NCBI GenBank assembly: GCA_965202665.1
Contig: OZ241841.1
Span: forward strand, 1,952,001 to 2,016,000
Length of the DNA stretch: 64,000 nt
From: Candidatus Spongiisociaceae bacterium
GTDB lineage: Bacteria > Actinomycetota > Acidimicrobiia > Spongiisociales > Spongiisociaceae
Reading direction: 5' to 3'
The translations under genes and the position numbers were made by a program. The notes under the pieces were generated by a model, which made no database searches, was not told where the DNA came from, and worked only from the letters and a program-made list of their open reading frames with translations. Of the stretch, positions 46,033 through 46,900 are shown piece after piece. How positions within the stretch are numbered: the first letter of the stretch is position 1; the number at the start of each line of letters is the position of its first letter.

Positions 46033-46107
46033 TTAAGAAGACCCGGCCCTAACAGGGCCGGGTGAGTAACTGTTTCAAGGACCTAACGGCCTTGAAACGT
46101 AGCGCTG
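46033..46107 (-). ncRNA. Candidate small RNA B2 (~70 nt), directly downstream of the NYN gene
   Basis: TTGACA (46142-46137), 18 nt, TATAAT (46118-46113), starting 20 nt after the NYN stop; same two hairpins as B1. Confidence 0.68.
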
Positions 46108-46162
46108 GCGTCATTATACATATTTGTCTTTCGGGTTGTCAAGTCGTCTGCCGATTTTTTCT

Positions 46163-46900
46163 TCACCATCCCCGGGGTCGGTGGACGGACCCCACTGCCT
46201 CGGGTAGTTGGCAAGATGTGAAATCCGCTTTTGACAGTTGGTACCACCAATGTCCGCCCCTGCCATCCGTCGGCTTGCCCCGCAGATCCCCGGCTCTTGG
46301 AGAGGGGCTGGGGTTAACGGTGCCGATTGGGGCCCGTAGGCGACATGCTTGGATGGGCAACCGCAGATCGCTGTCGTTGGAGATGACGATTGCGGCGTCG
46401 ACGCGTCCTTTTAGTACATCCAGTAGCAGATGCGAGGCTACGTTCACGTCTGAGCCTTTTTCTTCGATTCGCAGATAGGAGACCATGAACCGGGCGTTGG
46501 GAACGGCTGCGCCCTGCTCGTTCTGTATAACCACCGGCCACCGGGACGTGACGATCGAAGGACGACCCTCTTGGTCTTTGGTCGCAAGTAGCCCGTTTCT
46601 CACCCTGGTGCTGAAACGGCCTTGTTCCAAGTGGTCGATGGAGCGGTGATCCTGTAACGCTCTAACGTAGGCATCTTGGTCCAGGCGCCCTTGGCGGTTG
46701 TGTTGACCGTCGATGAAGGCGGTGCAGTAGACGATCCGCTCGATTACCGCTCCCTGCTCCGTCCAGTCGCGCCGCCGGTCGATCAATCGTTGGCTCAGCT
46801 GGCGGAGGTCGAGCCATCGCCATTCGGGGATTCCCCGGCCGAACAGGGCCCTGCCCCCGTAGTAGAGGTTGAAGCCGTCAATGTACACGCCCACTTTCAT
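46163..46900 (-). CDS. NYN domain (PIN-like) putative ribonuclease
   Basis: [42 protein letters not shown]; lower GC than its flanks. Confidence 0.92.

Follow-up and report, generated by a model that had tools for sequence, protein, structure and literature searches.

A predicted NYN ribonuclease gene and a separately promoted hairpin RNA form an apparently uncatalogued pair in Actinomycetota

The window analysed here, a stretch of 64,000 nucleotides, contains a gene for a predicted ribonuclease of the NYN (PIN-like) type together with a small RNA unit. The pairing of gene and RNA is fixed among the homologous loci, the RNA unit has its own promoter and a conserved stem and leader, the catalytic residues of the nuclease are intact and the cassette is inserted patchily. 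We regard the pair as a real and apparently uncatalogued family of nucleases with a small RNA. Judging from the sequences, this is likely to be an undescribed family of toxin–antitoxin pairs with an RNA antidote and, for the cassette itself, we consider it on balance probable that the NYN nuclease is a type III-like toxin and the separately transcribed hairpin RNA its antitoxin. The first-pass annotation had proposed that a small RNA with a promoter of its own accompanies the NYN gene, much as an RNA antitoxin would, a proposal supported by the 80 of 80 homologous loci described below.

The gene, its RNA unit and their second copy

The protein encoded by the intact gene matches the Pfam NYN family (PF01936; E = 1.9e-6, 28.9 bits compared with a cut-off of 24.2) and the PADLOC HEC-09 profile (E = 1.3e-24). 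The latter match falls into two stretches, split by a β insertion of approximately 45 residues (about residues 100-145) that is specific to this clade. Five acidic residues (D8, E147, D151, D176 and D178) are invariant in the 49 aligned rows, and the catalytic acidic residues are retained. The structure model (pLDDT 93) has 2qip (VPA0982; E = 2.2e-5) and the NYN domain of MARF1 as its top Foldseek matches; the protein shows both the PIN-like fold and the conserved acidic active site of PF01936. A PDB sequence search returned 0 matches, and the ToxN, CptN and TenpN families were not matched either (Pfam gave NYN only and NCBIfam nothing). The locus is covered by three contig runs; the strain differences listed outside the IS scrap all lie in the ORF and are too few to weigh.

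Past the stop codon of the gene, the consensus promoter described in the first-pass annotation is present (Table 1). Its pattern, TTGACA-18-TATAAT, occurs twice in the window compared with 0 times in 100 shuffles, and seven times in the 2.77 Mb genome. The two hairpins that had been drawn behind it fold as drawn (−37.4 kcal/mol for both, z = −5.6, with 0 of 200 shuffles equally stable), and in copy 1 both of their tops do carry GUUAGG. The CUUCUU tail taken as the end of the RNA after the second hairpin also exists, but is too weak in copy 1 for the terminator scan, which listed copy 2 only. The proposed length of about 70 nt agrees with the approximately 72 nt predicted for copy 1, whereas the typical homologous RNA is predicted to be about 40 nt long. 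Rfam 15 at its gathering threshold gave no small-RNA match: only tRNA was recognized in the window, the best match in 45200-46300 had E = 0.34, and ten homologous loci yielded just RNAI, tRNA and sub-threshold matches.

Table 1. Features of the cassette and of its second copy (positions in the window)
Feature	Position	Strand	Basis or remark
NYN (PIN-like) predicted ribonuclease gene, 245 aa, HEC-09-like	46163..46900	-	ORF translation, Pfam, PADLOC
σ70-type promoter of RNA copy 1, TTGACA-18-TATAAT, 12/12 consensus	46113..46142	-	20 nt past the NYN stop
Small RNA copy 1 (predicted; about 72 nt)	46035..46106	-	Folding; start placed about 7 nt past the -10 box, end at the pyrimidine tail (both inferred)
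Hairpin 1, lineage-specific 5′ add-on	46072..46098	-	Sequence comparison
Conserved core: A/C-rich leader, GC-rich 9-10 bp hairpin (hairpin 2, 46063-46041) and pyrimidine tail	46035..46071	-	Alignment, pair counts, covariance model (E = 5e-7)
IS481-type element, internally deleted, inserted in the second NYN copy	45584..45939	+	NCBIfam IS481, E = 4.7e-10, below cut-off
Remnant of the second NYN gene, mid-gene piece fused to the 3′ end	45497..45583	-	Translated frame; alignment with the DNA of the intact gene
Promoter of RNA copy 2, 12/12 consensus	45446..45475	-	Promoter pattern
Small RNA copy 2 (predicted), preserved behind the dead gene	45368..45439	-	Folding; covariance model (E = 2e-8)

The RNA locus as first delimited held copy 1, but missed a second promoter and RNA at 45475-45368. 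Over promoter and RNA the two copies are identical at 99 of 108 nt. The top of the second hairpin reads GUUGGG in copy 2, so that the stem is retained through a G–U pair. The ends and the middle of the IS481-type element that interrupts the dead gene are present in many copies in the genome. A third promoter-like site (45298-45269, minus strand; 10/12, extended TG) lies 70 nt past RNA copy 2, and approximately 170 nt of hairpin-rich DNA separate it from the terminator of the ABC gene.

The cassette has ppc and an ABC substrate-binding gene as its neighbours in the window and in one genome of the same genus, and is absent from the ppc–ABC interval in the five same-family relatives examined. The clade is absent from 400 sampled genomes of the phylum. 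Relatives occur in 174 plasmid records; those that are close have the same RNA, and the RNA unit is also found at Mycobacterium and Rhodococcus plasmid loci (L081 and L090). Direct repeats surround the cassette in 12 of 77 loci but in 0 of 77 mismatched controls. At L009, L015, L017, L018, L049, L050, L057, L068 and L076, these flanking repeats consist of host DNA and measure 45-298 nt. At L001, a duplicated RNA unit lies behind a copy of the end of the neighbouring gene. In the 122 frames that flank 61 loci, unrelated housekeeping genes predominate; mobile or defence markers are few (integrases, transposases and a methylase-associated domain), and the defence-island context is weak. An Hma defence locus was not seen around the NYN gene, whose neighbours in the window are ppc and the ABC substrate-binding gene. 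Elsewhere in the window, a gene combining Schlafen/AlbA_2, RecG-C and wHTH domains is split across two overlapping frames (49710-51244, minus strand).

Conservation of the unit beside homologous genes

A homologue search with one genome per species gave 185 relatives; the 80 best of them (44-81% identity) were retained. These loci range from Acidimicrobiia to Streptomyces and belong to Actinomycetota wherever their titles name a taxon. The first-pass annotation had suggested that the 3′ flanks of NYN homologues be aligned and, when these were examined for promoter and hairpin, the RNA unit was found to adjoin the gene in 80 of the best 80 loci (of 185), in one of them weakly. The sequence pattern accounts for 75 loci (79 matches), the covariance model for four more (E ≤ 3.4e-6), and L074 is the weak case (E = 0.009). 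Two pattern matches on the minus strand, at L066 and L068, were judged to be spurious and were removed before alignment; the covariance model was built from the remaining 77 together with the two window copies.

The constant element in these flanks consists of hairpin 2, the A/C-rich leader that precedes it and a U-rich tail. Conservation of the loop motif, which had been expected, was not seen: the loop of 3-5 nt is free to vary, and it is the leader and the lower stem of hairpin 2 that stay constant. Three of the ten stem pairs are invariant, as for a stem that would be read by a protein, and both-side changes are seen in five of the ten (16 cells compared with 5.1 in shuffled alignments, reached in 0 of 500, a count that kinship inflates). 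As judged by folding and pair counts, the structure is a plain hairpin, the methods used being of a kind that does not predict pseudoknots. There is one core unit per promoter in the NYN clade, and tandem repeats occur only at the distant locus L083. In 68 of the 79 pattern matches, the end of a −10 box (TANNNT) and the stem are 8-15 nt apart, compared with 1.3% of random sites, and six of the eleven matches without a near −10 box are 5′-extended RNAs with the promoter further upstream. With the −10 box at this fixed short distance from the stem, the usual product is predicted to be the short form of about 40 nt mentioned above.

The GUUAGG repeat fares differently from the hairpin that carries its second half. 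It had been proposed to provide a double site for a dimeric nuclease, yet GTTAGG occurs twice in 0 of the 77 homologous units and once in only one of them. Apart from the window locus, only its sister L001 has hairpin 1 with this sequence. Seven related proteins (including those of L006, L009, L010, L011, L019 and G147) come with a 5′ hairpin whose sequence is unrelated, such hairpins being seen in other members of one clade, and most have none. The repeat is therefore a local accident, which perhaps arose by a small duplication, and we rejected the double-site reading.

Layouts, orphan RNAs and a candidate mechanism

Across the 80 loci, the RNA unit lies downstream of the NYN gene on the same strand in 67, inverted and facing it in 11 and upstream of it in two, and in all three layouts the −10 box stays on the unit's own strand. 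A quick protein tree (82 rows, with five loci of interrupted frame omitted) gives at least two separate inversions of the unit. The order promoter, RNA, terminator, toxin is absent from the window and is found in two of the 80 homologous loci and at L196, the RNA lying outside the toxin's operon in 78 of the 80. That the unit is a mere terminator of the NYN gene could be ruled out, because a terminator requires neither a promoter of its own nor facing and upstream layouts. The three layouts with the promoter kept, together with the repeated inversions, indicate instead that the RNA unit probably acts in trans.

A broader action in cis, in which promoter and terminator would insulate or damp the NYN gene, or in which the hairpin would be an autoregulatory leader, leaving the RNA as a by-product, strikes us as doubtful. 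The hairpin with its U-tail is indeed terminator-like, and in the upstream layout (L079, L080 and L196) it would attenuate the gene. However, a single cis mechanism cannot serve three layouts, and a terminator needs neither a promoter 12 nt ahead of it (68/79 compared with 1.3%) nor a leader and stem conserved in sequence across protein identities of 44-81%.

How closely the RNA follows the gene can also be seen from searches that started from the RNA. In the source genome, the covariance model has no match below E = 0.3 other than the two copies. Among 150 other genomes of the class, the sole strong RNA match (E = 1e-8) and the sole close protein (59%) are adjacent, in G147, and four weak matches (E = 3.5e-4 to 8.8e-4) are terminator-like with no NYN gene adjoining. 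A metagenome scan with the RNA pattern gave at least 120 matches, 80 of which were listed; among these, 48 adjoin an NYN gene or fragment, 20 have flanks of 400 nt or more with no NYN in them, and a further 12 are too short to assess. In a viral scan with the same pattern, 18 of 18 matches had no NYN gene, showing that the hairpin alone has look-alikes, and 15 of the 18 had no −10 box; we read these matches as look-alike terminators and rejected them as RNA units.

The association is asymmetric: the RNA occurs without the gene in 20 of the 68 assessable metagenome matches listed, and the gene without the RNA in 0 of the 80 loci. An RNA that outlives its gene, as copy 2 does, is to be expected if the toxin is lost before its antidote, although orphan RNAs could also reflect a function without the protein. 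The orphan units at L142, L185, L201, L146, L164 and L160 lie beside integrase ends (confirmed by NCBIfam for L142), tRNA-like sites and a gene that contains a motif resembling AbiF but has no NCBIfam match.

In the mechanism that we infer at every functional step, the RNA would bind the nuclease and would likely keep it inactive. The strong promoter would supply a short, abundant RNA in excess of a weakly expressed protein, and the protein would recognize the conserved part of this RNA, namely the A/C-rich leader and the lower stem. The same stem would double as the terminator, and hairpin 1 would probably be a dispensable 5′ stabilizer. Upon a halt of transcription (phage shut-off) or loss of the DNA (plasmid or island), the RNA would decay first and the nuclease would be freed, causing a growth arrest that would result in addiction or abortive defence. 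Several points speak against the antitoxin reading: the clade has no tandem repeats, the RNA is rarely in the toxin operon, defence-island surroundings are scarcely marked, HEC-09 showed no phage protection in E. coli (10.1101/2024.01.29.577857) and the core resembles generic terminators, as seen from the weak class matches and the viral matches without NYN.

All of the evidence for the gene–RNA pairing would fit equally well with an RNA that is a non-inhibitory partner of the nuclease, whether a cofactor, a preferred substrate or a sensor that activates or aims the enzyme, and the clade-specific β insertion could then be an RNA-binding arm. We nevertheless find such a partnership unlikely: the RNA has no variable guide segment, with about five free 5′ bases in its typical form, and the copies that outlive the gene (20/68 among those listed, and copy 2) are given no reason.

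A reversal of the roles, in which the small RNA would be the toxin (as CreT) and the nuclease would destroy it, seems quite improbable. The promoter is very strong, and PIN-like enzymes are able to cut structured RNA. Yet the −10 box is kept in 22 of the 32 NYN-less metagenome matches among those listed, genomes in which a second gene may be present elsewhere, and RNA units persist where the gene is broken, with an interrupted NYN frame in five of the 80 loci.

We give very little credence to an antisense action resembling that of type I systems, in which the RNA would pair with the NYN mRNA. Eight of the nine bases before the start codon of the window NYN gene could pair with leader and stem, but over 75 loci the pairing of the RNA to its own start region (−32.1 kcal/mol) hardly differs from that to those of the others (−31.5 kcal/mol); the same holds for the leader alone (−12.1 compared with −12.0 kcal/mol) and for the longest complement in the own mRNA (7.35 compared with 7.37 nt). 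A type I toxin–antitoxin system, with an RNA complementary to the toxin mRNA, was rejected since the own pairing is no better than that of other loci.

Distant relatives and known systems

Plasmids and viral contigs carry distant HEC-09-like genes (25-35% identity) that match the HEC-09 profile with E values of 1e-30 to 1e-53. These genes often have promoter–RNA–terminator units of their own, many of which read promoter, A/C-rich leader, hairpin, terminator and gene, the canonical toxin order. A strict scan found such units at 18 of 47 viral loci compared with 0 of 141 shuffles, a weak control because natural spacers carry promoters and terminators anyway. On a 4.6 kb E. coli plasmid (L083:540-726), a promoter, four tandem hairpin repeats and a terminator precede a HEC-09-like NYN gene, which is the textbook type III toxin–antitoxin order; 18 plasmid records match. 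A shared leader motif was found in the distant families at 17 of 81 promoter-like sites, including at least four false matches, compared with 8.7% in the own genome and 5/73 outside the flanks. This modest enrichment hints at a leader motif common to distant families, but as a lead only.

The window holds another, distant NYN gene (31998-32600, plus strand; HEC-09 E = 3.9e-53), probably the 'locus A' of the first-pass annotation, in which a CxxC finger replaces the β insertion. Two tandem, divergently promoted RNA units lie upstream of it (31618-31740 and 31855-31975, minus strand), each of about 87 nt with three hairpins and a CCACCC run into the stem. A third NYN gene lies outside the window, together with a duplicate of it that has an internal deletion (about 763150-763850 and 765500-766200 of G000:C1, minus strand), each copy behind a TATAAT, a structured leader of about 120 nt and a hairpin; here again a dead gene keeps an RNA-like unit. 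On a 5 kb E. coli plasmid (L084:1-150), a DUF3800 gene occurs together with an NYN gene that is preceded by an RNA-like unit bearing repeats.

More speculatively, and as a possibility that we hold to be serious but short of probable, NYN/HEC-09-like ribonucleases may form a large unrecognised bacterial RNA-antitoxin superfamily with an A/C-rich leader running into a stem. Its actinobacterial branch would have shrunk the antitoxin to a hairpin of about 40 nt that would both bind the protein and act as its own terminator, and would rank among the smallest RNA antitoxins proposed, in a cassette able to be inverted or to change its place relative to the gene.

Few protein folds are known to be countered by RNA antitoxins, namely ToxN-type, HEPN AbiF and AvcD. 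If the hairpin RNA is indeed an antitoxin, the pair would add a common nuclease superfamily (PIN/NYN) to RNA-antitoxin systems and would provide a role for many NYN genes on plasmids and in prophages that are so far uncharacterised. The system is tiny, with one gene for 245 aa and one predicted RNA of about 40 nt, and its three natural layouts together with the orphan RNAs make it a clean case of an RNA regulator that travels with a protein. No report of an NYN–RNA pair was found in the literature outside subscription papers, and the supplements of PMC5737381 and of the bioRxiv report on HEC-09 could list the motif.

HEC-09 belongs to the same protein family by profile and has MARF1-like catalytic aspartates (10.1101/2024.01.29.577857); it differs from the actinobacterial NYN clade by the β insertion that splits the profile match in the latter. 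In that report it was published as a single gene that protected E. coli from none of the phages tested; no toxicity was reported, and the main text mentions neither ncRNA nor non-coding or small RNA (10.1101/2024.01.29.577857). An RNA partner may explain the inactivity of HEC-09 when handled as a single gene. Bacterial NYN clusters are given as being of unknown function in PMC5499597.

The cassette resembles ToxIN, CptIN and TenpIN in uniting a ribonuclease gene, a non-coding RNA unit and a terminator, in its patchy distribution and presence on plasmids, and in an RNA that is not antisense (PMC13682666, PMC11951105). It differs from them in the fold of the protein, which is NYN/PIN here and ToxN-type there (PMC13682666, PMC11951105). 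Moreover, the RNA is predicted to form a single plain hairpin instead of the tandem pseudoknot repeats of ToxI, CptI and TenpI, and it has its own promoter and is mostly downstream of or facing the gene, whereas theirs lie inside the toxin operon. None of the type III family features looked for at the locus (toxin family, repeats and operon order) was found.

The non-canonical RNA antitoxins of AbiF (RCd22; PMC12373285) and AvcID (PMC11951105) are similar in their short stem-loop motifs; they bind protein toxins of other folds and can act in trans (PMC12373285, PMC11951105). Their toxins are however HEPN proteins or deaminases, with the RNA upstream of the toxin, and the Rfam abiF model gave no match to the NYN-associated RNA at its gathering score. 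Finally, the DUF3800-I to XI, drum and skipping-rope RNAs, the functions of which were left open, accompany other proteins (DUF3800 is RNase H-like; PMC10910872) and form larger structures, NYN proteins being unnamed in the main text (PMC5737381). Yet, like the unit described here, they end in a terminator and keep to one protein family, on either side of the gene and in either orientation (PMC5737381).
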